DNA from: Pyrinomonadaceae bacterium
GTDB taxonomy: Bacteria; Acidobacteriota; Blastocatellia; Pyrinomonadales; Pyrinomonadaceae
Reading direction: 5' to 3'
Length of the DNA: 64,000 nt
Assembly (NCBI GenBank): GCA_040510435.1
Contig: JBEVJD010000356.1
Coordinates: forward strand, 1,026 to 65,025
The notes under the pieces were generated by a model, which was not told where the DNA came from, did no database searches, and worked only from the letters and a program-made list of their open reading frames with translations. A program made the position numbers and the translations under genes. Below, piece after piece: positions 7,762 to 42,600 of this stretch. How positions within the stretch are numbered: position 1 is the stretch's first letter; every line of letters begins with the position of its first letter.

Positions 7762-7841
7762 CAGAACGGCGAGCGGGTCAGTCTTACGCTTTGAAAATTA
7801 TTGGCGTAAGGCTGACCCGCTCGCGACCGCTCGCGTTACTG
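7762..7841. repeat. Hairpin of the GAGCGG-rich family
   Basis: cagaacggcgagcgggtcagtcttacgc (7762-7789) pairs with gcgtaaggctgacccgctcgcgaccgctcgcgttactg (7804-7841). Related copies lie at 34413 and 54137. Confidence 0.8.
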
Positions 7842-7846
7842 TCTCT

Positions 7847-11017: not shown

Positions 11018-11024
11018 CGGAAAC

Positions 11025-11137
11025 CAGTAGTCAGTAGTCAGTAGTCAGTAGAAAAATTCTCTTCATCTTAACAGTCAGCTTAAGAAGGTCAACGTCGGCG
11101 ACGCGGAGCGCCTACTGACTACTGTCTCCTGACTACT
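11025..11137. repeat. Heptamer-arm hairpin (GTAGTCA family)
   Basis: cagtagt x3 + cagtag (11025-11051) pairs with ctactgactactgtctcctgactact (11112-11137). The permease TAG stop (11133-11135) lies inside the right arm. Confidence 0.88.
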
Positions 11138-14036: not shown

Positions 14037-14159
14037 AGTAGACAGTAGTCAGTAGTCAGTAGTCAGTAGAAACCCCTTAATGAGTAGGGCTGTCAGTATT
14101 TCAGTACAACGTCCGCCGGGCGGAGCCTACTGACGACTGTCTACTGTCTCCTGACTACT
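14037..14159. repeat. Heptamer-arm hairpin (GTAGTCA family)
   Basis: agtagacagtagtcagtagtcagtagtcagtag (14037-14069) pairs with ctactgacgactgtctactgtctcctgactact (14127-14159). The TAG stop of the HD gene (14141-14143) lies in the arm. Confidence 0.88.
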
Positions 14160-16310: not shown

Positions 16311-16536
16311 CAGTAGGCAGTAGGCAGAGGGCAGTAAGCAGTGAGCCCCGGAGGGGCGGGATGTTTATAGCCCCCACGGTGTAAAAGACCCCGAGCCCCG
16401 TCAGGGGCGACATACACATGCCGCTCCTCCGGAGCTTGTCAGGTTAAGTATTACCCTTGAGCTATAAACATCCCGCCCCTCCGGGACTTCTCAAACAGCC
16501 TTCTACCTGCCTGCTGCCATCTGCCTACTGCCTACT
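16311..16536. repeat. Heptamer-arm hairpin (GGCAGTA family) enclosing a MITE-like element
   Basis: cagtaggcagtaggcagagggcagtaagcag (from 16311) pairs with ctacctgcctgctgccatctgcctactgcctact (16503-16536). Confidence 0.8.
16345..16498. mobile_element. MITE-like element, copy 1
   Basis: Perfect 24-bp terminal inverted repeats ccggaggggcgggatgtttatagc (16348-16371) and gctataaacatcccgcccctccgg (16461-16484). The core ccccgagccccgtcaggggcgacatacacatgccgctcctccggagcttg is shared with the copy at 24884. Confidence 0.8.
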
Positions 16537-16730
16537 CTCACCGCCCACTTCCCCTCCCCAACATTTTCCTTCCCAGACCGGTCGAAAGTGTTTAGAATGC
16601 TCGCCCATTACGGGACGGAGGCGGGCGCTCCCATACAGTCCGCGGCCGTCGCCCCTCAACCCGACAGGCCGGCGTGGCCCGCGGCGTGTGCTGAAGCCTC
16701 ACAATCGTTTTCGCTCTCAGACATGAAGGG

Positions 16731-17471
16731 ATGAATATGAAAAGGGGAATCTGCCTCCTCGTTCTCTTCGTCTTTGCGGCGCCCACGCTCCCTTCGGCGG
16801 GCGCGGCAGCGGCGGAAGACTCGTTGGCCTCCGTCCTGAAGCAGGGGGGCTACACCGTCTCTCTGGATTTGAGGGTGAAGAAGAAGAAGCGCGACTCTCT
16901 GGAGCGGGTCGTCAGCGACCTGCTCGGCGACAACGGGCCGAACGCCTACGCGACCGGCTTCGTCGTCGGCGAGGGGCTGGTGATGACCTCTTACCACGTC
17001 GTCTCGGGCGGCTTGAGCGCTGACAAGCGGCGGCAGCTCGGCTTCACCCTCGACGACCAGCTCGTGGTCGAGGCGTCGGTCAAGGGCTGCGTCGCCAAGG
17101 TGCTCAAGATCGACCCGGACTCCGACCTCGCGCTGCTCGGCATCTGCGGGACGCCGAAGCACGCCACGACCTTCGCCGTGCAGGAGGCGGTCAGCCCTGA
17201 CGAGGAACTGCTCGTCATCGCCCGCCCCAACGGCAACAAGGCCGTCAAGCGCGGCGGCTTCAAAGGCCCCTACACGTACCGCGGCAAAGAATACTGGTCG
17301 GCCAAGATCGAGGGGCGCGACGGCTTCTCCGGCAGCCCCGTCTTCAACGAGAAGGGACAACTCGTCGGCGTCTTCAGCGGCTACGACTACACACGCAAGG
17401 TCGCGCTCATCAGCCCCGGCGCCCACGCCCAGAAGCTCCTCCAGGACTACGCCGCACATCTCAAGCAGTAG
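16731..17471 (+). CDS. Secreted trypsin-like (S1/S1C-like) serine protease
   Basis: Signal peptide. Catalytic-triad contexts TSYHVV, DSDLALL, GFSGSPVF. Confidence 0.8.
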   Translation: MNMKRGICLLVLFVFAAPTLPSAGAAAAEDSLASVLKQGGYTVSLDLRVKKKKRDSLERVVSDLLGDNGPNAYATGFVVGEGLVMTSYHVVSGGLSADKRRQLGFTLDDQLVVEASVKGCVAKVLKIDPDSDLALLGICGTPKHATTFAVQEAVSPDEELLVIARPNGNKAVKRGGFKGPYTYRGKEYWSAKIEGRDGFSGSPVFNEKGQLVGVFSGYDYTRKVALISPGAHAQKLLQDYAAHLKQ

Positions 17472-17491
17472 AGCGCCGCTCAAAAACGTTC

Positions 17492-17566
17492 GCGCCCGCC
17501 CCGGAACCGCATCGGCCCCCACGCCTTCCGCGTGCAGTGGCCGAACGCCGTTTCCGGGGCGGGCGC
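17492..17566 (+). terminator. Possible terminator hairpin after the protease gene
   Basis: gcgcccgccccggaa (17492-17506) pairs with ttccggggcgggcgc (17552-17566), followed by tctttgtgatgttt. The loop is large. Confidence 0.35.
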
Positions 17567-17660
17567 TCTTTGTGATGTTTGAGGTTAAGCGGAGATACCC
17601 CGCGCGTGATTGCGAATCCGTTACATTGCGCTTGTCATGAGGAGACGGGGCTTAAAGGAA

Positions 17661-17747
17661 TTAACCACGGAGACACAGAGACACGCTAAGGCACAGCTAA
17701 AGTCATCAGGCTGTGTTCAAGCCGTGTCTCTGTGTCTCTGTGGTTAA
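17661..17747. repeat. Octamer-arm hairpin (AGAGACAC family)
   Basis: ttaaccacggagacacagagacacg (17661-17685) pairs with ccgtgtctctgtgtctctgtggttaa (17722-17747). A related copy lies at 45667. Confidence 0.85.
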
Positions 17748-17790
17748 TAAGGTCGCGCGCGAAGGCGCAGCGACGGAGGCGTCGGCTCAC

Positions 17791-17946
17791 TCACCCGCAG
17801 TCGGGGTGGTGGCAGGTGCAGCCGATCTCCATCATGTGCACCTTGGACGCGTCCTCGCACTCCTCCGAGCAGTACTTGCTGCCCTCCGCCGCCGGGCAGT
17901 CGCAGGTCTCGCGAGCGCACTTGTTCTTCGGCCTCTCGTCCGCCAT
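17791..17946 (-). CDS. Bacterial metallothionein, SmtA/BmtA-like (51 aa, absent from the ORF track)
   Basis: Translation: MADERPKNKCARETCDCPAAEGSKYCSEECEDASKVHMMEIGCTCHHPDCG. GGAGG lies 6-7 nt upstream. The pattern KCAxExCxC...YCSExC...GCxCHxxxC matches Synechococcus SmtA (KCACEPCLC...YYCSEACADGH...GCGHTGCNC). Confidence 0.65.
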   Translation of the reverse strand: MADERPKNKCARETCDCPAAEGSKYCSEECEDASKVHMMEIGCTCHHPDCG

Positions 17947-18024
17947 CTCAACCTCCTCGTTTTCGACTGTTCGTGGTCGGGGTACTTGCGCCTAAGTTTC
18001 GACCCGAGACGCCGCTTAAGTCAA

Positions 18025-18119
18025 GATGGGGAGAGTGAGAGACGGGGTGACGGAGAGACATCGCAAGCAGTACATGACTGCTTTCTCTCCCCGTCACCCC
18101 GTCTCCCACTCTCCCCGTC
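18025..18119. repeat. Hairpin of the GGGGAG-type family
   Basis: gatggggagagtgagagacggggtgacggagaga (18025-18058) pairs with tctctccccgtcaccccgtctcccactctccccgtc (18084-18119). Confidence 0.85.
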
Positions 18120-18128
18120 TGACTCAGC

Positions 18129-18827
18129 TCAAGGTGCCTGCTGGACGACGATGCGGACGCGTTCTTTGCCAACGACGATTTCGAGCGGGTTGCCGAGTTG
18201 GAGGGGGATGGTCTTGCCGTTGACGTTGATTTCGAGCGGGGGCACGGCGGCGGCGGGCGCCGTCGCGGAGGTGTCGGCTGCGGGCGTCGCGCCCGCGGGC
18301 GCGCCCGTCTCGGCGGGCGGCGGCGGGGTCTGTTCGCGCGGCTTGGCCACGTCGCCCGTGCGCGTCAGGAGCGTCGTCGCCACAATGCGCCACGTCGCGG
18401 GCGTGCAGGTCAGGCGCAGCCCCGGCGTGTCCACCTCGACCTGCTCGCGCGGCGCGAAGGCTTCGAGCTTCCAGAGGCCCTCGCCGCAGCGCACGCCGTC
18501 CTCGCCGTAGAAGGTCGCCCACCCCGCCACGTAGTTGTAGAAGACGGGGCTGCGGTTCTCGACCACGAACCGCGTGTTGCGCGCAGGGGCTTCGGGGCTT
18601 CCCACGAGCGACTGCGTGCGCAGGCGACCGCCCAACGCCTCGTTGCCCGCCACGTCGTACGCGATTGCCGCCTGCGCCAGGGGCACGTGCGGCTCGCTCG
18701 GCCGCACGTCCGAAGTGCTCGCCGCCGTCTGCTGCGGGGTCGCCTCCGCCGTCTGCGCCGACGCCGCGCACACGCACGCGGCGACGGCCGCGAGCAGAGA
18801 CGCCGTCCTGAAAAGTTTAGTCCTCAC
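18129..18827 (-). CDS. Hypothetical secreted protein
   Basis: GTG start at 18827 with GGAGG upstream. Signal peptide RTKLFRTASLLAAVAACVCAASAQ. The longer ORF-track N-terminus is rejected. Confidence 0.6.
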   Translation of the reverse strand: MRTKLFRTASLLAAVAACVCAASAQTAEATPQQTAASTSDVRPSEPHVPLAQAAIAYDVAGNEALGGRLRTQSLVGSPEAPARNTRFVVENRSPVFYNYVAGWATFYGEDGVRCGEGLWKLEAFAPREQVEVDTPGLRLTCTPATWRIVATTLLTRTGDVAKPREQTPPPPAETGAPAGATPAADTSATAPAAAVPPLEINVNGKTIPLQLGNPLEIVVGKERVRIVVQQAP

Positions 18828-18897
18828 CTGCTCCCCTCCGTTGCGGTATTCCGCGCGCCAAGAGAGTACAGGCCGCGGCGACCCTTTGACAAATTCT

Positions 18898-20163
18898 TCA
18901 GCCCGCGACGACCGGCATGTAGGCCGCGCCGCGCGGCAGCACGTAGCCCGCGGCGTCCGGCTCGACGCGCGCAAGCGCCTCCTCGACCGTGCGCGCGGGC
19001 GTCATGCGCATGTGGCGCACCTCCTCTTCCGGCAGGTTCGAGACGAGCTGGATGCGGAACCGCTCGGCCTTCGTCAGGAGCGACCAAGCGGTCTGGCCGT
19101 TGACCTCGTAAGCGTCGCGCAGGCGCGCTTCGAGCGCGCGCGAGTCTGCCGAGTCGAACCACTTGAGGAAGTCGGCGCGCCCCAGTCCGTCGGCGCACTC
19201 TGCGACGAGGACGATGTGGCCGCCCTCCACGCACGCGTGCGAGGCCATCTCCAGAGCCTTGTGCGCCTGCACGAGGTTGAGGTCGAAAGGCGCGCCACCG
19301 GCGGAGGCGACGACGACGGGTCGGCGCTCTTCAATCTTGACGGTGTGCGAGTCCGCGTACTCGGCGCAGGCGAGGCGGTGCGCCACGCGCCAGTCGCCGG
19401 CATACACGCGCACTATCTGTCCGCGCGCGTCGGTCACCGTGTTGATGAGGAACGACGGCGCGGCCTCGGCCGCAATGCGCTCGCACTCCTCGTGGACGGC
19501 GTTGCCGTCGAGCCTTCCGGTGCCGACGCCCGCGCGCCGCCCGCCGCGCTCGAAGTCGAGAGCCTGTAGGTGTGTCGCCTCAACCGTGCGCCGCGAGGCG
19601 AGTCCCGGGCAGACGCTCTTGCGCCCGCCGGTGAAGCCCGCGAAGTAGTGGAAGCCGACCCCGCCCGTGAGGATGACGTGCGAGTGTTCGAAGAGCGCGC
19701 GGTTCAGCTCGACGGGCGTGCCGCGCTCGGTCTCGCCGAAAGAGGCGTGCTGCGACCCGTCGTCGGCGTCGTGCGCGAGCGTGCGGACGCGCTGCACGAT
19801 GAAGGGCGTCAGAAGCTCTGCCTTCTCCTCGCGCGTCACCGGCCGGTGGATGCCCGTCGCGAAGATGACGCGCAGGTCGTAAGGCGCGACGCCGAGCGCG
19901 ATCAGGCGCCGCACGAGCAGGTTGACGACCTGCGCGCTCCCCGTCGCGCGCGTCGCGTCCGAGACGACGATCAAAATACTCTCGCCCGGGCTGATGATAT
20001 CTTCCAGCGGCTGCGAATCGACGGGGTCGTCAATCGCCGCCCCGACCTCCGCGTCCGACAGCGCACGCTCCTCGCGCGCCTCGCCTTCAAGCACCTCGAA
20101 GCGCCCGCCCTCGAACTCGAAAGAAACGTGACCGCGGCCGTAGCCTAGTTGGATTGTGGTCAT
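18898..20163 (-). CDS. LarA-like (nickel-pincer lactate racemase family, DUF2088) protein
   Basis: ATGIHRP and HYFAGFTGGRKSVCPG motifs, 421 aa. No larB/C/E genes are seen nearby. Confidence 0.82.
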   Translation of the reverse strand: MTTIQLGYGRGHVSFEFEGGRFEVLEGEAREERALSDAEVGAAIDDPVDSQPLEDIISPGESILIVVSDATRATGSAQVVNLLVRRLIALGVAPYDLRVIFATGIHRPVTREEKAELLTPFIVQRVRTLAHDADDGSQHASFGETERGTPVELNRALFEHSHVILTGGVGFHYFAGFTGGRKSVCPGLASRRTVEATHLQALDFERGGRRAGVGTGRLDGNAVHEECERIAAEAAPSFLINTVTDARGQIVRVYAGDWRVAHRLACAEYADSHTVKIEERRPVVVASAGGAPFDLNLVQAHKALEMASHACVEGGHIVLVAECADGLGRADFLKWFDSADSRALEARLRDAYEVNGQTAWSLLTKAERFRIQLVSNLPEEEVRHMRMTPARTVEEALARVEPDAAGYVLPRGAAYMPVVAG

Positions 20164-20170
20164 AAAAAGC

Positions 20171-20248
20171 AGGGAGTCAGGAGTCAGGAGTCAGAATGAA
20201 GAAGATGCGGCACCACTTTTTATTCTGAATTCTGGCTCCTGACTCCCT
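20171..20248. repeat. Heptamer-arm hairpin (GGAGTCA family)
   Basis: agggagtcaggagtcaggagtcagaat (20171-20197) pairs with attctgaattctggctcctgactccct (20222-20248). Confidence 0.85.
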
Positions 20249-20254
20249 TCCCCC

Positions 20255-20497
20255 TCACACCCCGAAGCGCACCAGCTCGCGTTCGATGACGTTGAGCGAG
20301 GCGAAGTCGGTCTTGCCGGAGGCGCGCGTCTCTGCGAGCCAGCGGCGGAGTTGCCGCGCCTCGTCGAGCGTCTGGATGCGGCACGCGCCCGTCAGCGCCA
20401 GCGTCACGAGCGCGTCCGGCGCGCCGTGCGTCATCAGCGCCGCCTGCAACGCTGCCTGCTCGCGCAAATCGAGGACGATGAGAAGGCTGATCTCCAT
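20255..20497 (-). CDS. Hypothetical small protein (80 aa)
   Basis: GC3-rich frame downstream of the CDF gene. No clear SD, and the start is uncertain (20497 or 20548). Confidence 0.4.
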   Translation of the reverse strand: MEISLLIVLDLREQAALQAALMTHGAPDALVTLALTGACRIQTLDEARQLRRWLAETRASGKTDFASLNVIERELVRFGV

Positions 20498-20510
20498 AAG
20501 TACAGATGTT

Positions 20511-20577
20511 AGATGTGAGCTGCCGGATGCTGGTGCGTGCCTTTTCACTAACGTCCAGCATCCGGCAGCTCACATCT
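20511..20577. repeat. Perfect 23-bp inverted repeat immediately after the CDF stop codon
   Basis: agatgtgagctgccggatgctgg (20511-20533) and its exact reverse complement (20555-20577), with a 21-nt loop. It is not of the heptamer type. Confidence 0.9.
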
Positions 20578-21545
20578 CATTCCTTCGTCGAGCGGAAGCA
20601 GGCCGTGCCGGAGGTGCAAAAGTGGAACGTCTCGTCCTCGAAGTCCTCGGTCTCCATCTGAATCGTCAGGTGGTCTACGCCAAACTGGTCGTGGAGCTTG
20701 GCGCGCAAAGAGCGCAGCAGCTCAGCGGGCGCGGCGGCGGGCGCGTGGCGGACGTGCGCCGAGAGCGCGTCGCGCCCCGAGGTGATCGTCCAGACGTGCA
20801 GGTCGTGCACGTCCTCGACGCCCGCCGTCTCAAGGATCGCGCCCTCGACCGCGGCGAGGTTGATGTGCGCGGGTGTCCCTTCCAGCAGGACGTTGGTCGC
20901 CTCGCGGATGAGGCTCCAGGAACTCCACACGATGAGCACGGCGATGAGCGCGCTGAAGAACGGGTCGGCCGCGTGCCAACCCTTCAGCGTGATGAGCAGG
21001 CCCGCGGCGATGGCTCCCACCGACCCGAGCGCGTCGCCCATCACGTGCAGCCACGCGCCGCGCACGTTCAGGTCGCGCTCGTGGTCGCCGTGCAGCACCC
21101 ACGCGCAGACGAGGTTGACGAGCAGGCCGCCCGCGGCGATGAGCGTCAACGTCCCCCCGCGCTCGATGGGCGGCGGCGCGAGCCAGCGGCCGTAGGCGTC
21201 GTAGAGGATGAAGAGCGAGACGGCCGCGAGCGCGACGCCGTTCGTGAACGCGGCGAGTATCTCCAGCCGGTAGTAGCCGTACGTCTTCGTCGGGTTGGCG
21301 GGGCGCGCCCCGAACCGCGCGGCCACCAGCGCCAGCGCCAGCCCCGCCACGTCAGCGAGCATGTGACCCGCGTCGGCCAGCAGCGCCAGACTCCCCGTCC
21401 ACCAGCCGCCCGCCGCCTCGGCCACCGTGTAGGCGGCCGTCAGCGAGAGGACGAGGAGCAGCCGCCGCCGCCCGCGCGCCGAGAGCGTGTCGTGAGTGTG
21501 CGCGTGCGCGCCGTGCGCGTGCCGGTGTCCGTTCTCCGAAGCCAT
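20577..21545 (-). CDS. Cation diffusion facilitator (CzcD/ZitB-type Zn/Co/Cd efflux)
   Basis: His-rich N-terminus (HRHAHGAHAHTHD), SLALLADAGHMLAD and HVMGDALGS motifs, C-terminal cytoplasmic domain. The ATG at 21545 is preferred. Confidence 0.92.
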   Translation of the reverse strand: MASENGHRHAHGAHAHTHDTLSARGRRRLLLVLSLTAAYTVAEAAGGWWTGSLALLADAGHMLADVAGLALALVAARFGARPANPTKTYGYYRLEILAAFTNGVALAAVSLFILYDAYGRWLAPPPIERGGTLTLIAAGGLLVNLVCAWVLHGDHERDLNVRGAWLHVMGDALGSVGAIAAGLLITLKGWHAADPFFSALIAVLIVWSSWSLIREATNVLLEGTPAHINLAAVEGAILETAGVEDVHDLHVWTITSGRDALSAHVRHAPAAAPAELLRSLRAKLHDQFGVDHLTIQMETEDFEDETFHFCTSGTACFRSTKE

Positions 21546-21620
21546 CTGCCTTAAGGGATTCCCGACCTCCCGCCGCCGTCGAAGCGGTAAGCTTAGCAGA
21601 TTACGCCGGAGCCCGACAGA

Positions 21621-21773
21621 GGCAGTTAGTAGGCAGTTGGCAGATGGCAGTTGAAAGACAATAAGACTCGTTTGACGCATTCGCCCTGAACGAATCGAAG
21701 GCGGCGAGATTCATTGCTCGCCGCCTTCGATTCAATTCAGGCGCCTTCTGCTTTCTACTGCCTACTGCCTACT
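21621..21773. repeat. Heptamer-arm hairpin (GGCAGTA family) with an inner GC hairpin
   Basis: ggcagttagtaggcagttggcagatggcag (from 21621) pairs with ctgctttctactgcctactgcctact (21748-21773). Inner 17-bp stem gaatcgaaggcggcgag / ctcgccgccttcgattc (21692-21733). Confidence 0.8.
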
Positions 21774-21779
21774 CCCCCC

Positions 21780-22574
21780 TCACAGCTCGGCGAGGCCGAG
21801 GGCGCGGTTGAAGTCGCGGTAGAGTTCGTTGAGGTCGCGGATGTTCTTCTCCAGCACGCGGGGGAGGTCGCCGACCTCCTTCATCTGGACGACGAGGTTG
21901 GCGCCGGCGAGGAAGGCCGCGTGCGCGTCGCCCGTGCGCGCCGTGTTCGTCAGGAGCACGAAGACGAGGCGGCGCCGCTCCGCGTTGCGCATCGAGACCA
22001 ACTCGCGGCCGACCGCGACCGCGCCCTGCGCGCGCGGGTCGAATTCTGGGTCGAGCACGAGCACGTCGAGCTGCTCCTCGCGCATGCGCTCGACGGCCTG
22101 CGCGGCGTCGGCCGCGACCGACACGTCGTAGCCGGACTGGCTCAGGCCGCGCGCCGCGTCGCCGCCAAAGGACGAGCCCGCGCACACCAGCGCGCGCCTG
22201 CACTCCCAATCGCCGCGGCGCCCGCTCCCCGCGAACGAAGCCCGCGCGCCGCCCACTTCGCCCGCCGCCTCGCGCCGCAGCAGCGACGCGAGCAGCCGCA
22301 GCACGTCCTCGCTCGACTCGGGCGGAGGCGGTGCGGCCGCGGGCGCGTCGCTCACCAGCGGCGCGGCGACCGCGGGCGCAGAATCCTGCCGCGGCCGCGC
22401 CGAGGCCGGCAAGTCGCCGACCGCCGCCACGGCGTCGCGCTGTGCCTCCTGCGCGGGCGGCTGCGCGTTGACGATCTGCTGACACTTCGGGCAGCGCACG
22501 CTGAACGGGCGCGCAGGAATTTTGGCCCCGTCGAGCTGGAGCTTCGTGGTGCAGTTGGGACAGGTAACTATCAT
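21780..22574 (-). CDS. Zinc-ribbon (MJ0042-type) + receiver-like domain protein
   Basis: N-terminal CPNCTTKLQL...VRCPKCQQ. The C-terminal CheY-like fold has LDVLVLD but lacks the N-terminal acidic pair. It lies directly downstream of pilT. Confidence 0.75.
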   Translation of the reverse strand: MIVTCPNCTTKLQLDGAKIPARPFSVRCPKCQQIVNAQPPAQEAQRDAVAAVGDLPASARPRQDSAPAVAAPLVSDAPAAAPPPPESSEDVLRLLASLLRREAAGEVGGARASFAGSGRRGDWECRRALVCAGSSFGGDAARGLSQSGYDVSVAADAAQAVERMREEQLDVLVLDPEFDPRAQGAVAVGRELVSMRNAERRRLVFVLLTNTARTGDAHAAFLAGANLVVQMKEVGDLPRVLEKNIRDLNELYRDFNRALGLAEL

Positions 22575-22577
22575 GGC

Positions 22578-22730
22578 AGGGAGTCAGGAGTCAGAACTCA
22601 GGAGTCAGAAGTTAAGAGCCGGTAGTCTGGAGCTTCGGAGTCAAAGGTCGTTGAGTATCAAGTCAGTCGTAACGGACAAGACGACACCCGCTCTACATTC
22701 TGACTTCTGACTCCTGACTCCTGACTCCCT
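22578..22730. repeat. Heptamer-arm hairpin (GGAGTCA family)
   Basis: agggagtcaggagtcagaactcaggagtcagaagt (22578-22612) pairs with attctgacttctgactcctgactcctgactccct (22697-22730). Confidence 0.85.
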
Positions 22731-22732
22731 TC

Positions 22733-23959
22733 TCACTCGATCATATCGAGCATGGAGCCGCCGCCCGCGGGGCGCGTGGGGGCGGAGGGGAAGGCGCGTG
22801 GGGGGGCGGCGGGGCGCTTCGCGGTGAAGCCCGAGGCTTCGGCCGGCCGGAAGTCGTCCGTCGCCGACATGCCTTTGAGCGCGAGTTGTAGATTGTTGGG
22901 GTTCGTGGCGAACGAGAGCCCGTCTTCGAGCGTGATCGTGCCGGCCTCGATCATCCCCTTGATGACGTTGTCGAAGTCCTGCATCCCGTCGAGCCGCCCG
23001 TCGCGCATCGCGTCGAGCAGAGACTTCCCGTCCGACTCGCCCGCGGCGACGTACTCGCGCGTGCGCGGCGTGGACTTCAAGACCTCGACCGCCGCGATGC
23101 GCCCGCGGGCGTCGGCGCGCGGGATCAAACGCTGCGAGACGATGTAGCGGAACGTCTGCGCGAGCCGCGTGCGGATGACCTGCTCCTCGTTCTTCGGGTA
23201 GAGGCCGATGATGCGGTCGACGGTCTTCGACGCGTCGATGGTGTGCAGGGTCGAGAGGACGAGGTGACCCGTCTCGGCCGCTTCGAGCGCGATCTCGGTC
23301 GTCTCGTAGTCGCGCATCTCGCCGATGAGGATGACCTTCGGCGCCTGCCGCAACGCCGAGCGCAGCGCCGAGGGGAAGTCGCGCGCGTCGGAGCCGACCT
23401 CGCGCTGGTTGATGGTCGAGTTCTTGTGCGCGTGCAGGAACTCAATCGGGTCTTCGATGGTGACGATGTGGTAGTGCTGCTGCTGGTTGACGAGGTCGAT
23501 GACGGCGGCCAGCGTCGTGGACTTGCCCGACCCCGTCGGCCCCGTCACCAGCACGATGCCGTTGCGCAGCTCCGCGATGTCGGCGAGCTGCTTCGGCAGG
23601 GTCAGGGATTCGAGCGTCGGTATCTCGGTTGGGATGACGCGCATGACGATGGAGTAGGTGCCGCGCTGCTGGAAGATGTTGACGCGGAAACGCGTGCGCG
23701 AGGGCAGAGAGTAGCTGAGGTCGGCCGAGCCGGAGTGCACGAGGCGCTGCGCCGCGTCCGGGTTGCCGTGCATCAGCGTCATCGCGATGACCTCGGTCTG
23801 GTACGGCGTCAGCTTCTGCAAGCCCAACGTCTGGACGGGGCGCAACTGGCCGTTGACCTCCACCTGCGGCGCCTGGCCGACGGAGAAGTTGAGGTCGCTG
23901 ATGCCTTCGGCGGCCTTGAGCATCTGCTCGATGACGGGCGGCAAGTCGAAATATTTCAT
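22733..23959 (-). CDS. pilT: Type IV pilus retraction ATPase PilT/PilU family
   Basis: Walker A GPTGSGKSTT, Asp box, Walker B VILIGEMRD, His box LVLSTLHT. About 40-aa Pro/Ala-rich C-terminal extension. Confidence 0.93.
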   Translation of the reverse strand: MKYFDLPPVIEQMLKAAEGISDLNFSVGQAPQVEVNGQLRPVQTLGLQKLTPYQTEVIAMTLMHGNPDAAQRLVHSGSADLSYSLPSRTRFRVNIFQQRGTYSIVMRVIPTEIPTLESLTLPKQLADIAELRNGIVLVTGPTGSGKSTTLAAVIDLVNQQQHYHIVTIEDPIEFLHAHKNSTINQREVGSDARDFPSALRSALRQAPKVILIGEMRDYETTEIALEAAETGHLVLSTLHTIDASKTVDRIIGLYPKNEEQVIRTRLAQTFRYIVSQRLIPRADARGRIAAVEVLKSTPRTREYVAAGESDGKSLLDAMRDGRLDGMQDFDNVIKGMIEAGTITLEDGLSFATNPNNLQLALKGMSATDDFRPAEASGFTAKRPAAPPRAFPSAPTRPAGGGSMLDMIE

Positions 23960-24220
23960 GCGGGGATTGGCGACTCCGTGTGGCGGGCGGTAAAGAACGC
24001 GGGGCAGGATTTTAAGTCAGGAGGCCGGGAACGGGGCACTGCCCCCGACGACCTTTTTTATAATGTCTGAATGGAATGGGAAAAGCAAGTTAAAACTTTT
24101 AACCTGCTCATCTCTTAAGACTTACCTGACTTTAGCAGTTTTGCGGTCGGGTGCGACCGGGGCCCAAACAGAACCGCGAGCGGTAGCGAGCCTCTGAGGC
24201 ACTGTCTCGGGGTTAAAGTC

Positions 24221-24853
24221 TCAGAGCACGGCGAAAAATGCGCGGGTGCGGCGGGTGATTTCGGCTGGGTCTGTGGTGTTGACGAGCGCGCCGATGACGG
24301 CGACCGAGTCGGCGCCGGCTTCGAGGACGGAGGGCGCGCCCTCCGCCGTGATGCCGCCGATGGCGACCAGCCTGATTGAGCGGCCGACCGCCCCGCGCAC
24401 ACGCTTCAAGCCTTCGAGCCCGACGACCGGGTCGGGGTTCTCCTTCGACGAAGTGTCGAAGACCGGCCCGAGGGCTATGTAGTCTAACGGCAGACGCGCG
24501 GCCTCGATTGCCTGCTCGACGTTGTGCGTCGAGAACCCGACGATCTTCCCCTCCCCCAGCAACGCCCGCGCGGCCTCCGGCGGCATGTCGTCCTGCCCCA
24601 GATGCACGCCGTCCGCCCCGACCGCCAGAGCCACGTCAACCCTGTCGTTGACGATCAACCTCGCCCCGAAGAAGCGCGCCACCTTCAAAGCCTCCGACGC
24701 CTCCCCGTAAAACTCACGCGCCGCCAACCGCTTCTCCCTCAACTGCACCAAACGCGCCCCGCCCTCACACAGACGCGCCACCTGCTCCGCGTGCGTGAGC
24801 CCCGACAAACGCCGGTCGGTAATCGGATAGAGCTTTGGCAATTCTAAAATCAT
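24221..24853 (-). CDS. thiE: Thiamine-phosphate synthase
   Basis: LYPITDR..., GADGVHLGQDD, IGGI...; 210 aa. Confidence 0.92.
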   Translation of the reverse strand: MILELPKLYPITDRRLSGLTHAEQVARLCEGGARLVQLREKRLAAREFYGEASEALKVARFFGARLIVNDRVDVALAVGADGVHLGQDDMPPEAARALLGEGKIVGFSTHNVEQAIEAARLPLDYIALGPVFDTSSKENPDPVVGLEGLKRVRGAVGRSIRLVAIGGITAEGAPSVLEAGADSVAVIGALVNTTDPAEITRRTRAFFAVL

Positions 24854-24883
24854 AAGGACTGAGAGCTTGCTTAAAGAGTACTC

Positions 24884-25035
24884 GCTCCGGAGGAGCGAAA
24901 TGTTTATAGCTTAAGCGAGTATTATTCAACCAAGCTCCGGAGGAGCGGCATGTCTATGTCGCCCCTGACGGGGCTCGGGGTTGGTTGAAACACTGGGGCT
25001 ATAAACATCACGTCCCTACGGGACTTTTCAAACAG
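24884..25035. mobile_element. MITE-like element, copy 2 (core inverted relative to copy 1)
   Basis: Terminal inverted repeats ccggaggagcgaaatgtttatagc (24887-24910) and gctataaacatcacgtccctacgg (24998-25021). The core is the reverse complement of the copy-1 core. It is flanked by short arms aaggactgag (24854-24863) / ctcagtcctt (25068-25077). Confidence 0.75.
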
Positions 25036-25080
25036 ACTCTGCGGACTGAGTGAAGAGCAGCATTTGACTCAGTCCTTATC

Positions 25081-27270
25081 TTATCTCGCGTCGGGTGGGA
25101 CGGCCGTCTGCTTGCCGTCGAGGTAGCGGTCGAACCAGTAGAGCTGCCAGTTGAGGCTCTCGACTAAATGTTTGGGCTCGCCCGTGCGGGTGAGGTTGTG
25201 GTTCTCGCGGGGGAAGATGACGAACTCGGCGTTGGCGCCGAAGTGGCGGAGGGCGCGAAACCACTGCTCGGCCTGTTCGAGCGGGACGCGGTGGTCGTTC
25301 TCCGAGTGGAGAATGAGGATGGGCGTCCTGACGTTCTTCGCGTACTTGAGCGGCGAGCGCTCCCAGTAGAGGTCGAACTTCTCGAAGAGGTCGCCGCCGA
25401 AGTCGTCCTCGTGGCCGTAGGCGCCGTCGCGCGTGCCCTCGTCGCTGATGAAGTTGACGACGCTCCGCAGCGTCACGGCCGCCTTAAACATGTTCGTGTG
25501 GCCGACGATCCAGTTGGTGAGGTAGCCGCCGTAGCTCCCGCCCGTCACGCCCAGGCGCTCGCGGTCTATCCAGGGGTTGCGGCGCAGGACTTCCTCGACG
25601 CCGTTCATCACGTCCACGTAGTCCTTGCCGCCCCACTCGCCCTCGATGCCGCGCTCGAAACGCTGCCCGTAGCCCGTCGAGCCGCGCGGGTTCGTGTAGA
25701 AGACGGCCCACCCGCGCGCGGCGTAGACCTGAAACTCGTGGAACCAGTCCACGCCGTACATCGAGGCGGGGCCGCCGTGGATGCTCAAGACCAACGGGTA
25801 CTTGACGCCCTCACGCCAGCCGACGGGTCTGACGAGGAAGCCGTCAACGTCCCAGCCGTCGGCGCCCTTGTAGGTCATGCGCTCGACGGCCGAGAGTTGG
25901 AGCTGCGGCCAGAGGCGCGCGTTGAGGCTCGTCAACTTCTTCTCGTCGGAGCCGTCGAGGTCTGCCGTGTAGAGGTCGTCGAGGCGCCGGAAGTCGTTCG
26001 CGGCGTAGACCAGGCGCCGCGAGTCGTTGGAGATGTCCACGAAGCGGACGGCGCGCGCGCCCTTCGTCACCTGCTTGATCTTTCCGTCGCGCGCGTCCGC
26101 GCGGAACAGATGCGCCTCACCCTTCACGCCGGTCTCGAAGTAGAGCGCGCGCCCCGCTTCGGCCCAGGTCAGATTCGAGGGGATGAGGTCGAGTTCGGGC
26201 GCGACGTTGCGCGAGGGCGCGCCGCCCGCGGCCGGAGCCAAGAAGATTTTCGGGTGGTCGCGTTCGCGTATGCGGCCGAGGAAGGCGATGGTCTTTCCGT
26301 CGGGCGACCAGCGCGGGCTGTTGTCGGCCTCGTCGTGGTCGGAGATTTTCCGGATGGGGCCGCCGGCCGAGTCTATGACGAAGACATCCGTGTTGCGGCT
26401 CTCGTCGAAGGCTTTGCCCGTGCGGTCGGAGACGAAGGCGATAAGGTTGCCGTCGGGCGACCACTGCGGGTCGGAGTCGTTCCAGTCCTCGCCGAAGGTT
26501 ATCTGCGAGGCCGCGCCGCTCCGCACGTCAAAGACCCAGACGTGGCTGCGCTTGTCGTCGAACCAGCCCGTGTCGTTGAACTTGTAGGAGGTGTGCTTGT
26601 AGTGACGCACGTCGCTCGAAGGCGGTTTGATGTCGCTCGGGCCGGTGCGGCTCGTTAGCACCAACCGTGTTCCGTCCGGCGACCAGTCGAAGGTGCCGAC
26701 GCCGTTCCTGAGGTTCGTCAGGCGCCGCGCCTCGCCGCCTTCGAGCGAGAGCAGCCAGACCTGCGCGCGCGGCGTCGCCTCGGGCGTCGCGGTCTGGAGC
26801 GCCGAAGGTATCCCCGGCGTCGTCGCCGTGACCTGCGACTGCGGCGCGGCGCCCGAAGTCGCGGGCGCAGGCGTCGGCGTGGGCGTCGCACTTCCCTGCG
26901 GCGAAGACGGGGCGACATCGGGCGCGGGTCTTGAGGAGAGGAAGGCTATCGAGCGGCCGTCGGGCGACCAGCGCGGCGAGGTCGAGGACTGCGGGCTCGT
27001 CGTGAACTGGCGCGGCGTGCGGCTGCCGTCGGTCGCCGCCAACCAGATTTGAGAGAGCCGGCGGTTCTGCCTCTGATCCACGTTCGTCACGACGTAGGCC
27101 ACCCAGCGCCCGTCGGGCGAGAGCCGCGGGTCGGAGAGAAACTCGAACGAGTAGTAGTCCTCGGCCGTGACGCCGCGCGGCGCCTGCGCGACCTGCGCGG
27201 CGAGCGGCGCGGCCGAGACGAACGAGAGCAGCAGGGAGACGGCGAGCGCCCCCTTCAAAAACATTCTCAT
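25081..27270 (-). CDS. S9-family serine peptidase with TolB-like beta-propeller
   Basis: Signal peptide and repeated WSPDG propeller motifs. Catalytic GGSYGGYL, C-terminal D/H region (HSENDHRVP). Confidence 0.92.
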   Translation of the reverse strand: MRMFLKGALAVSLLLSFVSAAPLAAQVAQAPRGVTAEDYYSFEFLSDPRLSPDGRWVAYVVTNVDQRQNRRLSQIWLAATDGSRTPRQFTTSPQSSTSPRWSPDGRSIAFLSSRPAPDVAPSSPQGSATPTPTPAPATSGAAPQSQVTATTPGIPSALQTATPEATPRAQVWLLSLEGGEARRLTNLRNGVGTFDWSPDGTRLVLTSRTGPSDIKPPSSDVRHYKHTSYKFNDTGWFDDKRSHVWVFDVRSGAASQITFGEDWNDSDPQWSPDGNLIAFVSDRTGKAFDESRNTDVFVIDSAGGPIRKISDHDEADNSPRWSPDGKTIAFLGRIRERDHPKIFLAPAAGGAPSRNVAPELDLIPSNLTWAEAGRALYFETGVKGEAHLFRADARDGKIKQVTKGARAVRFVDISNDSRRLVYAANDFRRLDDLYTADLDGSDEKKLTSLNARLWPQLQLSAVERMTYKGADGWDVDGFLVRPVGWREGVKYPLVLSIHGGPASMYGVDWFHEFQVYAARGWAVFYTNPRGSTGYGQRFERGIEGEWGGKDYVDVMNGVEEVLRRNPWIDRERLGVTGGSYGGYLTNWIVGHTNMFKAAVTLRSVVNFISDEGTRDGAYGHEDDFGGDLFEKFDLYWERSPLKYAKNVRTPILILHSENDHRVPLEQAEQWFRALRHFGANAEFVIFPRENHNLTRTGEPKHLVESLNWQLYWFDRYLDGKQTAVPPDAR

Positions 27271-27294
27271 GCTTTCACCTTCACGCGGAGGGTC

Positions 27295-27873
27295 TTAAGG
27301 GTTCGTCTTCGGGATGGGCGTCTGTTTGACCGCCAGGCCGGCTTCAGGGTTGTCGGCGTCATACGCGACTTCGCGGTGCACCTCTTCTCTGAAGTCATCG
27401 AGCGCGAGCGTCATGCGCCGCCCGGACACCTTCGGCCCCTCCTCGGAGGTGACGGACGCCCAGCAAGACTCGTAGCGCTCGTTCTTCGCGTCGCGCACGC
27501 GCCACGCGCCGTCGAGCTTGAGCCAGACAACGTTGCACTCTGTCCCGGCGCCGCACTGCCGGTCGTCGGGCGGCACCTTCGACAGCCCGCACACGTCGAG
27601 CAGCAGGTACGTGAAGCCGCCCGCGCGCGACAGGAAGAGCACCGACACGTCCTCGATACGCATCGCGTCAACGTGCTTCGTCAGGTCGAGCGTGCGGGCG
27701 CGGCCGCCCTCCGTGACGACGACCCCGAGCCGCCCCTTCGCGCGCACGCTGACGCGCCCCTGCGCGCCCACCGGCACCCAGGACACGCAGGCCACGCACA
27801 GCGAAAGCAGTACGGCGCCGACGGATTGTTTGAGAAGTCGCAGCCCCGGAGGGGCGTGATTTTTATCGCGCAT
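27295..27873 (-). CDS. Hypothetical secreted protein; the start codon lies inside MITE copy 3
   Basis: The only canonical start is the ATG at 27873. The first 15 codons (MRDKNHAPPGLRLLK) are MITE sequence, followed by a signal-peptide-like h-region VGAVLLSLCVACVSWVPVGAQG. Confidence 0.55.
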   Translation of the reverse strand: MRDKNHAPPGLRLLKQSVGAVLLSLCVACVSWVPVGAQGRVSVRAKGRLGVVVTEGGRARTLDLTKHVDAMRIEDVSVLFLSRAGGFTYLLLDVCGLSKVPPDDRQCGAGTECNVVWLKLDGAWRVRDAKNERYESCWASVTSEEGPKVSGRRMTLALDDFREEVHREVAYDADNPEAGLAVKQTPIPKTNP

Positions 27874-27993
27874 GCTTTTTTTGTCGTCCGAGCCCCGTCA
27901 GGGGCGGCACGTCACATTTCGCCCCCGACGGGGCTCGGGAGAAAATTAAATACGCGGGGCTATAAACATCACGCTCCTCCGGGGCTTTACAGG
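27827..27993. mobile_element. MITE-like element, copy 3 (variant core)
   Basis: Terminal inverted repeats ccggaggggcgtgatttttatcgc (27846-27869) and gctataaacatcacgctcctccgg (27959-27982). Palindromic core ccgagccccgtcaggggcg...cgcccccgacggggctcgg. Confidence 0.75.
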
Positions 27994-28013
27994 TCGGCTT
28001 CTATTACTTCGTC

Positions 28014-34382: not shown

Positions 34383-34412
34383 TCAGTCCTCTTCTGAGCC
34401 GGCGGCCCGGTG

Positions 34413-34507
34413 AAACGGAACCGCGAGCGGTAACGAGCGGGTGCGTCTTACGACATTAGTCCGCACGGCGTACCTGCGACCCGCTCGCGAACGCTCGCGG
34501 TTCTGTT
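34413..34507. repeat. Hairpin of the GAGCGG-rich family
   Basis: aaacggaaccgcgagcggtaacgagcgggtgcg (34413-34445) pairs with cgacccgctcgcgaacgctcgcggttctgtt (34477-34507). Confidence 0.8.
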
Positions 34508-41357: not shown

Positions 41358-41516
41358 TTGCTCTTTCGCTTTCCGAAGAGGTGCGTGCGCGGCAGCCGGG
41401 GGACTTCACCGGACGTTGAAAGGATAACCCGCGGCGAGAACGCACGCAACCGCCCCACGCCCGCCATTACACGCCTCGACCGCGCTGCGGTTGCAGAAAA
41501 AGCAGGAGGCTTAAAG

Positions 41517-41641
41517 GCAAGTAGACAGGAGTCAGGAGTCAGGAGTCAGTAGAAAAGAGAGGCGGCGCGTCTCAACCTCCGGGCCGAGCGCGCCGCCTGG
41601 TTCTTCTACTGACTCCTGACTCCTGTCTACTGCCTACTGCC
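41517..41641. repeat. Heptamer-arm hairpin (GGAGTCA/GTAGTCA mixed) with conserved inner GC hairpin
   Basis: gcaagtagacaggagtcaggagtcaggagtcagtag (41517-41552) pairs with ctactgactcctgactcctgtctactgcctactgcc (41606-41641). Inner aggcggcgcgtc...gagcgcgccgcct (41560-41598). Confidence 0.88.
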
Positions 41642-41643
41642 TT

Positions 41644-42600
41644 TTACGGCCGCCCGGTGGCCTGGCTGACGACGCGCGAGTTGACGACGCGGCCCGCGGC
41701 GTCGAGCGTGAGTTCGATGACGGCGCCGGTGGTGTCGAGGACGCGGCGGACGGTCTGCCCCGAAGGGTTGGTCGTGTCGGCGCCCTGCTGCGTGAGCGAG
41801 CCCACGCTGCCGACCGTGCGCTGGCCGACGACCGTCCCGGCCGTGTCGAGCGTGCGTTCGACGATGTTGCCCGAGCGGTCGACGACCCGCTGGACGGTCT
41901 GGCCGAGGTTGTTGACCGTCGAGTTCAAAAGCCCGCCGGGCTGCGTGACGTTGTTGAGGGTCTGGCCGACGGTGCCGACCGTGCGATCCACGACGCCGCC
42001 CGGTTGCAGAGCCGTGTTGGCGACGCCGCCGACCGTGCCGACCGTGTTGTCCACGCTCTGGAGGAGCCGTTCGAGTATCTGCGGGTTGCGGTCGATGGTC
42101 GTCAGCGTGCGGTCGATGATGGCGGCGACGTTGTCGAGCCTGACCTTCAGGAGCACCTCGGCGCGCACGCCCTTGATGGTGAGGTCAACGTCGTCAATCC
42201 CCACGTCGGCACCCGCGGTCAGTTGCAGGAGGTTGGCGAGGCGCGCGTCCAGAGCGACGTGCGCGCGCAGGTTCTTCACCTTCAGAGTTATCTCTTCGAC
42301 CGAGAGGTTCGGCACGTCTAAGAGCACGTCCGGGTCGCCCGAGGCCGCGGACTGCCGCCGGCGCTCGCTCGCCTCCTGCTGGCGGCGTATGTCCTCCTGC
42401 GAGAGCGGGCGGACGGGCGTGACGGCGGGCGGCGAAGGGCGCGGCGTCGGCTGCTGCTGCGCGGTGCGCGTGCCGGTCGCGGTGGCGTTGATGGAGGCGT
42501 TCGGGTCGCCCTGGTTAGTGGTCGTGGTCGTCTGCGCGTAAGCGCCGACGCCGTGGAGCGCGAGGATCAGCAAGGCTCCTGCTTGAAAGAGCTTCTTCAT
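41644..42600 (-). CDS. Secreted repeat protein (hypothetical), gene C of a 3-gene operon
   Basis: Signal peptide MKKLFQAGALLILALHGVGAYAQ with GGAGG upstream. C-terminal repeats of the type VDRSGNIVERTLDTAGTVVGQR / LDTTGAVIELTLDAAGRVVNSR. Confidence 0.7.
   Translation of the reverse strand: MKKLFQAGALLILALHGVGAYAQTTTTTNQGDPNASINATATGTRTAQQQPTPRPSPPAVTPVRPLSQEDIRRQQEASERRRQSAASGDPDVLLDVPNLSVEEITLKVKNLRAHVALDARLANLLQLTAGADVGIDDVDLTIKGVRAEVLLKVRLDNVAAIIDRTLTTIDRNPQILERLLQSVDNTVGTVGGVANTALQPGGVVDRTVGTVGQTLNNVTQPGGLLNSTVNNLGQTVQRVVDRSGNIVERTLDTAGTVVGQRTVGSVGSLTQQGADTTNPSGQTVRRVLDTTGAVIELTLDAAGRVVNSRVVSQATGRP

Follow-up and report, generated by a model that had tools for sequence, protein, structure and literature searches.

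A dispersed family of four-hairpin repeats in an Acidobacteriota genome, best explained as REPIN-like derivatives of a Y1 transposase cassette

The window, i.e. the whole 64,000-nucleotide stretch of DNA analyzed here, carries three copies of a short repeat which are best explained as REPIN-like, non-autonomous derivatives of a REPtron/TIRtron-type cassette. The source genome (G000) is an Acidobacteriota MAG of 7.56 Mb. A first-pass annotation of the window had described three copies of a MITE-like element, and a profile search with nhmmer recovered exactly three, at 16345-16494 (+), 25023-24879 (-) and 27985-27835 (-). The terminal-repeat consensus given there was correct, with the pair in copy 1 forming a perfect 24-nt inverted repeat, and so were the opposite orientation of the core common to copies 1 and 2 (arms 16344-16438 and 24931-25025, 95 nt, 85% complementary) and the palindromic core variant of copy 3, which is symmetric (GAGCCCCGTCAGGGGCG...CGCCCCCGACGGGGCTC). 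As annotated, the elements are non-autonomous, and no transposase partner was found within the window. The features are listed below (no sign where no strand applies).

16311-16344: left arm of the GGCAGTA-type heptamer hairpin around copy 1 (families D1/D7)
16345-16487 (+): conserved core of copy 1 (nhmmer 141.7 bits), laid out as U1 hairpin GCCCCGGAGGGGC and GGGATGTTTATAGC, linker, U2/U3 (GAGCCCCGTCAGGGGCGACATACACATGCCGCTCCTCCGGAGC), linker, GCTATAAACATCCC and U4 hairpin
16488-16546: right outer arm of copy 1 (TTCTCAAACAGCCTTC), then right (TACTGCC)n arm of the heptamer hairpin
24855-24863: left-arm heptamer (GGACTGAG) of the host (GGACTGA)n hairpin, split off by copy 2 (comparison with G011 and G044)
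24864-25035 (-): copy 2 as inserted DNA, with outer arms of 20 nt (AGCTTGCTTAAAGAGTACTC) and 11 nt (TTTTCAAACAG)
24884-25024 (-): conserved core of copy 2
25036-25077: remainder of the host (GGACTGA)n hairpin (95% match to G011:C427:1626-1663, minus strand); its loop, 25051-25067, is inverted with respect to G011
27825-27842: outer arm of copy 3 (ATTGTTTGAGAAGTCGCA), overlapping the 5' end of the minus-strand ORF 27295-27873
27843-27985 (-): conserved core of copy 3 with symmetric U2/U2' centre (101.1 bits)
27986-28002: other outer arm of copy 3 (TTTACAGGTCGGCTTCT)

Further copies had been anticipated at first pass and were found throughout the genome: about 162 are full and about 13 partial, and a 26-nt end pattern gave 268 matches as compared to none for its reversed control, so that the family exceeds chance. 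Solo hairpin units are rare (11-19 versus about 650 within full copies) and the full element is therefore the unit. The full copies are predominantly intergenic (149 of 162, 92%). Their orientation relative to genes is unbiased (56 versus 45) and their gene context (tandem 101, divergent 22, convergent 18) equals the background, and 3' ends are not preferred. The copies are old as well as diverse, since their median pairwise identity is 76%, nearest neighbours share 87% and no two are identical. These data support a dispersed, non-autonomous repeat family.

Each copy is built from four hairpin units arranged as two nested inverted pairs, a unit being a 5-bp stem followed by a G-N-N-ATGT(TTATAG) tail, and a conserved core is common to all copies (A/GCCCC...GGGGC/T, slashes marking its edges). 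The terminal repeats are themselves autonomous small hairpins, whose local pairing is kept where left-right complementarity is lost; in copy 2 the two terminal hairpins differ (left GCTCC/GGAGC, right GTCCC/GGGAC) and both are fully paired. Local hairpins are fully paired in 91-94% of copies, double compensatory variants are present, and identity to the consensus is 92-93% in the modules versus 57-67% in the linkers between them, indicating that the local hairpins are under constraint. No co-variation between the two linkers was found. As a whole, copy 1 folds into a long hairpin (z = -9 to -11).

Comparison with congeneric genomes revealed the empty sites expected of a mobile element. At all five loci tested (the three window copies and two further ones) the element is missing at the orthologous sites, which are either empty or differently filled. 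The copy 1 site in G044 keeps a GGCAGTA-type hairpin with a different apex of about 60 nt and no element. The copy 2 site is empty in G011 (flanks 94-95% identical), G044 and G003, and the G011 site indicates that copy 2 was inserted as a segment of about 172 bp, outer arms included. For copy 3, empty sites of 43 bp and 98 bp were found in G003 and G023, respectively. Target-site duplications were sought at every boundary and none was found within 30 nt.

The sole match to PF01797 (Y1_Tnp) in the genome, at C27:6003-6347, lies exactly between the halves of a split copy of the element, with nhmmer element positions 1-73 and 73-149 immediately flanking the gene. The end units around it are the only inverted pair in the genome spaced 0.2-8 kb apart and the only one to enclose more than 200 bp. 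A longer partner with the same ends, as envisaged by the first-pass annotation, is thus present, and it encodes a Y1/HUH transposase instead of the DDE enzyme proposed. The protein is intact (166 aa), contains the HUH motif and the catalytic Tyr, scores 84.9 bits against Pfam Y1_Tnp and has catalytic motifs that align with those of its homologues; judged by its sequence, it looks functional. It passes the NCBIfam IS200 model (65.1 bits, cut-off 55), and its best relatives in the PDB are IS200-type TnpAs. The gene looks recently arrived, because its GC content is 49.6% in a genome of 66.9% and four congeners lack it at the orthologous position; a search of 36 congeneric genomes gave no close orthologue. 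Its own ends share only 75-82% identity with the dispersed copies and have no close counterpart in any sub-family.

The same architecture surrounds homologous genes in at least five phyla. Homologues 63-70% identical in other families of the class, as well as homologues 55-73% identical in Verrucomicrobiota, Planctomycetota, Bacteroidota and Poribacteria, are flanked by two-plus-two hairpins with different, co-varying stems. Significant upstream/downstream inverted repeats were detected at 65 of 77 homologue loci, with about two GC hairpins per side versus 0.2 in shuffles. Of 120 genomes surveyed in the class, 24 have a close orthologue (31 matches in total), and 17 of these contain the end motif; of the other 96, 16 contain it (odds ratio 12, p = 7e-7, without correction for phylogeny). 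Repeats also occur in genomes lacking a close orthologue, namely G003, G007, G011, G014, G023 and G024, the congener G049 (93 end-motif matches) and three 100%-complete genomes of the family (26-62 motif matches).

Several known systems share part of these properties. As in the REPIN-RAYT systems, or REPtrons, of Pseudomonas and E. coli (Nunvar 2010, PMC2817692; Bertels & Rainey 2011, PMC3116915; Bertels 2017, PMC5581495), short GC-rich extragenic palindromes occur in inverted pairs and hundreds of copies, a mostly single-copy Y1/HUH gene sits between matching palindromes, target duplications are absent, variable spacers part conserved hairpins and doublets outnumber singlets. Differences are that the C27 protein fails the curated RAYT model (NCBIfam REP_Tyr_transpos, 35.2 bits, cut-off 80) and is closer to IS200-type TnpA, that two nested inverted pairs give the element four hairpins instead of two, that the 5' GTAG tag is absent with G(T/G)AG found inside the hairpin instead, that identity between the population and the copies beside the gene is only 75-82%, and that the host phylum is Acidobacteriota. 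On motifs alone (DH[IV]H, WQ, Y---Q--HH), the C27 protein and its homologues are assigned to TnpA-Y1 subclass 1.2, with which they also share a conserved C-terminal extension of about 30 aa and a low number of gene copies per genome; this subclass was published as being without REPs (Quentin et al., 2018, PMC6006769), whereas 65 of the 77 loci studied here, in at least five phyla, have the two-plus-two hairpin cassette, of which a dispersed gene-less population also exists. TIRtrons comprise Y1 genes (TIRYTs) with flanking inverted repeats, sometimes doubly palindromic, whose repeat copies form moderately abundant families, and Acidobacteria are among the groups from which they were described (Di Nocera et al., 2013, PMC3733652); the C27 gene resembles them in its flanking inverted repeats and the dispersed copies of those repeats. 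Most TIRYTs belong to the longer subclass 2.1 (NH[VYF]H and YIELNP, about 238 aa), while the C27 protein has DHIH and YIRNQEQHH in 166 aa. Like the IS200/IS605 elements (IS608, ISDra2 and PATE/MITE-like gene-less derivatives), the system has a Y1/HUH TnpA of the IS200 type, subterminal hairpins and no target duplication; unlike them, it has a single-copy gene and no tnpB. The two ends of an IS200/IS605 element are unlike each other and carry one hairpin each, in contrast to the inverted repeats with two hairpins per end seen here.

The full cassette reads U1-U2-[Y1 transposase gene]-U3-U4, and in our reading the repeats of about 145 bp are this cassette minus the gene. We propose that recognition falls on the four small GC hairpins together with the conserved tail of each (hairpin-GNNATGTTTATAG on the outer side, hairpin-GACATGT centrally). 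A transposase of the Y1/HUH type, from the IS200/IS605 superfamily and with the subclass 1.2 signature (DHIH, WQ, YIRNQEQHH), would bind the hairpins on single-stranded DNA, then cut and rejoin them in trans, leaving no target duplication. Insertion may favour intergenic DNA that is single-stranded or extrudes hairpins, most of all GGCAGTA-type heptamer hairpins at their apex and arms. We infer the catalysis by the C27 protein, the single-stranded intermediate and the cleavage positions. It is likely that the elements derive from and were mobilized by Y1 enzymes of this clade; whether the C27 gene itself is the current mobilizer is evenly balanced.

Alternatively, the repeats might now be immobile, their amplification having been the work of an ancestral Y1 transposase from the same clade which was later lost; the C27 gene would then be a related cassette of recent acquisition with no action on them. 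This variant of our reading has the same origin and a different present state. We regard it as possible though the less probable course: the low GC content of the gene, its absence from the orthologous site and from all congeners examined, the divergence of its ends, the age and diversity of the copies and the persistence of repeats in genomes without the gene are in its favour, but G000, the only genome of the genus with the gene, has the largest repeat population observed (268 motif matches versus 93 in G049 and at most 153 elsewhere). Moreover, G011 lacks each of the five insertions tested at a flank identity of 94-97%, which speaks for turnover following a recent split. The recognition modules are of the same kind, and binned draft assemblies readily lose a short gene that lies between high-copy repeats.

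The first-pass annotation had also linked the insertions to heptamer hairpins. This association is statistically real, although not every copy shows it: beside copies, GGCAGTA-type arrays show a 42-fold enrichment (20/31 versus 27/648 for other types), and about 60% of the copies adjoin a heptamer array. Copy 1 sits at the apex of its GGCAGTA-type hairpin, as claimed; copy 2 is indeed associated with a hairpin, of the (GGACTGA)n type, and lies inside its left arm rather than in the loop. The enrichment, together with flanks in which the palindrome mostly runs on right up to the core, would also fit a composite module, in which repeat and GGCAGTA heptamer arms arise or move as one unit (e.g. 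by template switching on hairpins) and the hairpin is a part and not the target. We consider this unlikely, as about 40% of the copies, including copies 2 and 3, lack such arms, relatives retain the GGCAGTA hairpin with a different apex at three orthologous sites, and copy 2 was inserted, without heptamers of its own, into a hairpin of a different heptamer family.

About as unlikely is a host function (as terminator, mRNA-stabilizing hairpin, protein-binding site or small RNA) with spread by recombination and host selection on the modules. The modules are strongly conserved and the hairpin with its T-rich tail fits a weak terminator pattern; E. coli REP/BIME elements have acquired host roles of this kind. 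Against it stand the background-like gene context and unbiased orientation of the copies, the lack of an Rfam match and of linker co-variation, the presence/absence differences between close relatives and the gene-bearing cassette, which it leaves unexplained. A conserved structured RNA gene, named at first pass as the competing possibility, is likewise contradicted by these polymorphic insertions and the unbiased orientation, by an Rfam search of the element without a match and by linkers that do not co-vary. The MITE class suggested at first pass, with a DDE transposase (IS630/Tc1, IS5, PIF-like) recognizing the 24-nt terminal inverted repeats, is very improbable and largely refuted: the elements share with classical bacterial MITEs (Correia/NEMIS, IS630-/IS5-derived) their small size, terminal inverted repeats, high copy number, intergenic location and long-hairpin potential, but target-site duplications are absent at any offset, the genome holds no DDE partner and no second longer element with these ends, the ends are hairpins that fold on their own, and Y1 genes in many phyla are flanked by the same ends.

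The three repeat elements reported by the first-pass annotation were recovered with a profile built from genomic copies (nhmmer), which matched the window exactly three times, at 16345-16494 (plus strand), 25023-24879 (minus strand) and 27985-27835 (minus strand). Their terminal inverted repeats are 24-26 nt long. Copies 1 and 2 do share a core in opposite orientation (95 nt, 85% complementary), and the variant core of copy 3 is a symmetric form of it. The conserved parts of the copies are as follows:

16345-16487, plus strand: core of copy 1
24884-25024, minus strand: core of copy 2
27843-27985, minus strand: core of copy 3

In the source genome (G000, a draft assembly of 7.56 Mb in 622 contigs with 66.9% GC and 94.5% completeness), BLAST and nhmmer together identified about 162 full copies, plus about 13 that are partial or lie at contig ends. 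As short, imperfect, GC-rich palindromes of high copy number and extragenic location, with four hairpins per copy, they fit the traits of REP/REPIN sequences. Placement was determined relative to gene calls from a crude GC3-based caller: 149 of the 162 copies were intergenic and did not overlap with called genes, and the gaps holding copies were of the tandem (101), divergent (22) and convergent (18) type, against a background of 3293, 657 and 607, respectively. Only 11-19 solo units were detected outside full copies, which fits the REPIN trait of inverted doublets with rare singlets. The median pairwise identity of the copies was 76% and the nearest-neighbour identity 87%, i.e. the population is old and diverse. 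Contig ends coincide with repeats or hairpins at the starts of C356, the contig of the window, and of C405, which overlap by about 137 nt at a repeat/hairpin break, and at the ends of contigs C221, C433 and C47 of the congener G011. Repeat counts taken from the assembly are thus minimum values, and bins may lack short genes flanked by repeats; both annotation and assembly of these genomes are affected, with repeats sitting at contig breaks in G000 and in related MAGs.

Each element consists of four related units (U1-U4), every one of them a hairpin with a 5-bp stem followed by a G-N-N-ATGT tail, arranged as two nested inverted pairs (U1/U4 outside, U2/U3 inside). The 144-nt consensus reads GCCCCGGAGGGGC-GGGATGTTTATAGC, linker, GAGCCCCGTCAGGGGC-GACATGT directly abutting ACATGCC-GCTCCTCCGGAGC, linker, GCTATAAACATCCC-GCCCCTCCGGGGC. 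The copies are 92-93% identical to the consensus in the three modules and only 67% and 57% identical in the two AT-rich linkers. Hairpin stems are fully paired in 91-94% of the copies, and the stem variants represent double compensatory changes (GCCCC/GGGGC, GCTCC/GGAGC, GTCCC/GGGAC and GCGCC/GGCGC). In 31 copies, including copy 2, the left and right terminal hairpins differ from each other at two or more positions and each is still paired locally. Left and right linkers gave no sign of pairing with each other (cognate -9.94 vs non-cognate -10.01 kcal/mol). Folding predicts a hairpin spanning the whole element (z about -9 to -12); since the linkers show no mutual pairing, this long hairpin is not the conserved feature; it is the four small hairpins, together with their tails, that are preserved. 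On both strands, the end units (a GC hairpin followed by ATGTTTATA) also fit the pattern of a weak intrinsic terminator (window 24882-24898, 25012-25024 and 27843-27855); sites with this pattern number 14 in the region vs 9.0 +/- 2.7 in shuffles, without clear enrichment.

The candidate for the autonomous partner, which the first-pass annotation proposed to search for among transposases such as IS630/Tc1, is a Y1/HUH transposase gene on contig C27, outside the window, lying between the halves of a split copy. It is the single match to Pfam Y1_Tnp (PF01797) in the whole genome (C27:6003-6347). Positions 1-73 of the element were located by nhmmer at C27:6439-6367 and positions 73-149 at 5889-5816, so that the locus reads U1-linker-U2-GAGG-N5-GTG(166-aa ORF)...U3-linker-U4, and a pattern scan of G000 detected no other inverted pair of end units with a spacing of 0.2-8 kb. 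The protein contains the motifs PDHIHLL, WQ and YIRNQEQHH. It scores 84.9 bits against PF01797 (cut-off 23), passes NCBIfam NF033573 (IS200) with 65.1 bits (cut-off 55) and fails NF047646 (REP_Tyr_transpos) with 35.2 bits (cut-off 80); its nearest solved structures are IS200-type TnpAs (E about 4e-6). In this gene (C27:5862-6359, loci L001/L002), the U3 hairpin encodes the last 12 residues of the protein (SPGHAAPTGLGK); several homologues also have AP(T/N)G at their C-terminus, which is read from GCCCCTACGGGGC. At the N-terminus, the nine residues MANTYTQIY hardly vary between phyla.

The cassette characterises the gene family. In other families of the class, orthologues with 63-70% identity are arranged as U1-U2-gene-U3-U4, with the same ATGTTTATAG and GACATG tails and other stems (GCTCC, ATCCC, CACCCC, GACTCC). 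One scan of species-representative genomes yielded at least 505 relatives, the best 80 of which (55-73% identity) belong to Acidobacteriota, Verrucomicrobiota, Planctomycetota, Bacteroidota (Flavobacterium, Chryseobacterium), Poribacteria and others. All inspected loci showed the same layout, with the variant tails ATATTTATAG, CTGTTAATAG and ATCTTTGTAG. Upstream/downstream inverted repeats lay above the 99th percentile of shuffles in 65 of the 77 usable loci, which carry about two GC-rich 5-bp hairpins per side (0.2 in shuffles) and in 45 cases at least two hairpins on both sides. Paralogues at 33-41% identity have multi-hairpin flanks of their own. A close orthologue is present in 24 of 120 other genomes of the class (31 matches in total), and the end pattern GNNCCNNNGGNNCNNNATGTTTATAG was detected in 17 of these 24 genomes vs 16 of the 96 without one; the reversed control pattern gave one match (G027) across 121 genomes. 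The co-occurrence of gene and end pattern has an odds ratio of 12 and, on raw counts of related genomes, p = 7e-7, a value which overstates the case because these genomes are not independent.

The ends of the C27 gene are only 75-82% identical to the dispersed copies; in their modules, the copies themselves agree with their consensus at about 92% identity. A repeat sub-family matching the transposase's own ends was sought, and none exceeded 82% identity. With a GC content of 49.6% (genome 66.9%) the gene looks foreign; it is missing from the orthologous position in the congeners G011, G049, G023 and G044, and no close orthologue was found in 36 congeners. Several congeners without an orthologue carry repeats (93 end-motif matches in G049 vs 268 in G000), and three 100%-complete genomes of the family contain 26-62 motif matches and no close orthologue. 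The absence of the gene may in part be an artefact, as assembly readily leaves a 0.6-kb gene between high-copy repeats on a short contig that escapes binning. The claims on the clade and on the gene itself therefore differ in strength: Y1 enzymes of the clade of the C27 protein probably gave rise to the repeat family and mobilise it, whereas the chances that the C27 gene itself encodes the enzyme acting on the copies today are roughly even.

Five orthologous sites (copies 1-3 and the sites on contigs C124 and C172) were compared, and the element was lacking in congeners at each of them:

Copy 1 site, G044 (89% identical flanks): GGCAGTA hairpin with a different apex of about 60 nt
Copy 1 site, G011 (96%): an 850-bp gene in place of the element
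Copy 2 site, G011 (94-95%) and G044: (GGACTGA)n hairpin without element; G003: 17-bp gap
Copy 3 site: 43 bp in G003 and 98 bp in G023
C124 and C172 sites, relatives: GGCAGTA arms with other apex contents, or entirely different heptamer families

The comparison delimits the copy 2 insertion to about 172 bp (24864-25035) with outer arms of 20 nt and 11 nt. Downstream of one gene, G000 (C405) and G049 each have a copy; these copies are only 75% identical and their downstream flanks differ, and either shared ancestry or repeated insertion fits. A signal-peptide gene overlaps at its 5' end with the end and outer arm of copy 3 (window 27825-27873; minus-strand ORF 27295-27873). In G003 and G023 this gene starts with TTG-AAG-CAA-CTC behind a GGAGG-like site, with a gap of 43-98 bp to the upstream gene; in G000 the start region is replaced by copy 3 sequence. 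Repeats can give neighbouring genes start codons, and copy 3 appears to do so.

Period-7 arrays, which form the arms of the heptamer hairpins, number 679 in the genome under a strict test (1-80 for other periods from 5 to 11), and about 22% of the intergenic gaps of at least 100 nt hold one. Association with the repeats was tested at a 15-of-21 threshold against the intergenic background: an array lies within 100 nt on at least one side in 95 of 159 copies and on both sides in 48, with a background of about 18% per flank (p <= 3e-12). Among strict arrays, 20 of the 31 of GGCAGTA type adjoin a copy vs 27 of 648 of all other types (odds ratio 42). A strict hairpin definition (19/21 periodic positions, both arms) returned 155 hairpins, only 3 of which held an element, as it was too strict for the imperfect arms that occur in reality; ungapped comparison of left and right flanks was uninformative, since indels between heptamer variants break the register. 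The hairpin also exists without the element, relatives retaining the same GGCAGTA hairpin under another apex, and copy 2 sits in a different heptamer family. Judged by these few sites, the hairpin is more likely to be a favoured target of insertion, as suggested earlier, than a component of the element. A composite origin, in which the heptamer hairpin belongs to the element, is kept as a rival explanation.

The reading of the copies as DDE-type MITEs (IS630/Tc1, IS5, PIF) did not hold, as neither a target-site duplication nor a DDE partner sharing the terminal repeats was found: direct repeats of 2-8 nt gave no signal over 31 x 31 boundary offsets (best 4-mer rate 2.5%), and the absence of target-site duplications is a trait expected of IS200/IS605-type transposition. 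A structured RNA family was rejected with 0 Rfam matches, no orientation preference relative to genes (56 vs 45 copies) and no linker co-variation across the long stem.

Functionally, the system is REPIN/RAYT- or TIRtron-like (PMC3116915, PMC2817692, PMC3733652). As in REPIN-RAYT systems, a single-copy Y1/HUH gene lies between the genome's own repeats in inverted orientation; flanking REPs in those systems are close to the dispersed master sequence, whereas the C27 flanks reach only 75-82% identity. REPs have a conserved GTAG at their 5' end, whereas the ends described here start with A-GCCCC and G(G/T)AG lies inside the loop and 3' stem instead of forming a 5' tag. RAYT proteins (NF047646; class 2, Quentin 2018) have a tyrosine motif of the YIxxNP type, whereas the C27 protein has YIRNQEQHH and remains below the cut-off. 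It resembles IS200/IS605 TnpA (NF033573, PF01797) in its HUH motif (PDHIHLL), catalytic tyrosine (YIRNQ) and scores above the cut-offs, but IS200/IS605 insertion sequences occur in multiple near-identical copies, and here there is one gene copy in G000, and 31 matches in 24 genomes of the class. Likeness to TnpA-Y1 subclass 1.2 (PMC6006769) extends to DH[IV]H, WQ, Y---Q--HH, a conserved C-terminal block and low copy number; by this motif comparison, the C27 protein is a putative member of the subclass. Subclass 1.2 has been published as being without REPs and IS-like ends (PMC6006769). New here are its link to a conserved four-hairpin cassette with gene-less progeny and the nesting of repeats in heptamer hairpins, neither of which we found described in the open-access papers searched. 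It is conceivable, though we consider it rather unlikely, that all orphan subclass 1.2 Y1 transposases are REPtron-type cassettes with deeply conserved four-hairpin ends (hairpin-NNATGTTTATAG ... hairpin-GACATG) in at least five phyla, seeding REPIN-like populations that in this lineage home to the apex of extruded heptamer-repeat hairpins. If true, a single-strand-specific transposase would naturally target hairpin loops in vivo. A concrete, testable role emerges for a Y1/HUH branch (at least 505 relatives) that is large and conserved but poorly understood, the REPIN/RAYT concept extends past the Proteobacteria-centred class 2 enzymes, and the repeats nested in heptamer hairpins make it possible to examine whether extruded hairpins are targets of single-strand-specific transposases.

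Intergenic heptamer hairpins are found in the window at 2413-2528, 11019-11137, 14037-14159, 41512-41646, 56516-56661 and 59706-59824, and also at loci L121-L129. In one and the same orthologous gap, the heptamer family varies between congeneric species (GGCAGTA, AACCGTG, GGGTGTT, AAGGCAA), and some gaps hold several families nested in each other, so that turnover is much faster in the arms than in the genes on either side. The loop of the (GGACTGA)n hairpin beside copy 2 (window 25051-25067) is inverted relative to G011:C427:1626-1663 (L030), with 95% identity on the opposite strand, which suggests that the apex may flip between the inverted arms. A second apex module of about 60 nt, of the form GTTGAAAGCSCCG...CGATTWATYCTTTCAA...AACGCGGRGCGGCTGCC, recurs in relatives, inside GGCAGTA hairpins at sites that are occupied by the element in G000 (L024 in G044 at the copy 1 site and L121 in G003 at the C124 site). 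Another dispersed palindrome family, AACAGAACCGCGAGCGGTAGCGAGCGGGTCAGC and its complement, occurs three times in the window (7769-7845, 34406-34507 and 54130-54232), and in G011 the C172 site is occupied by a relative of this family (L125).
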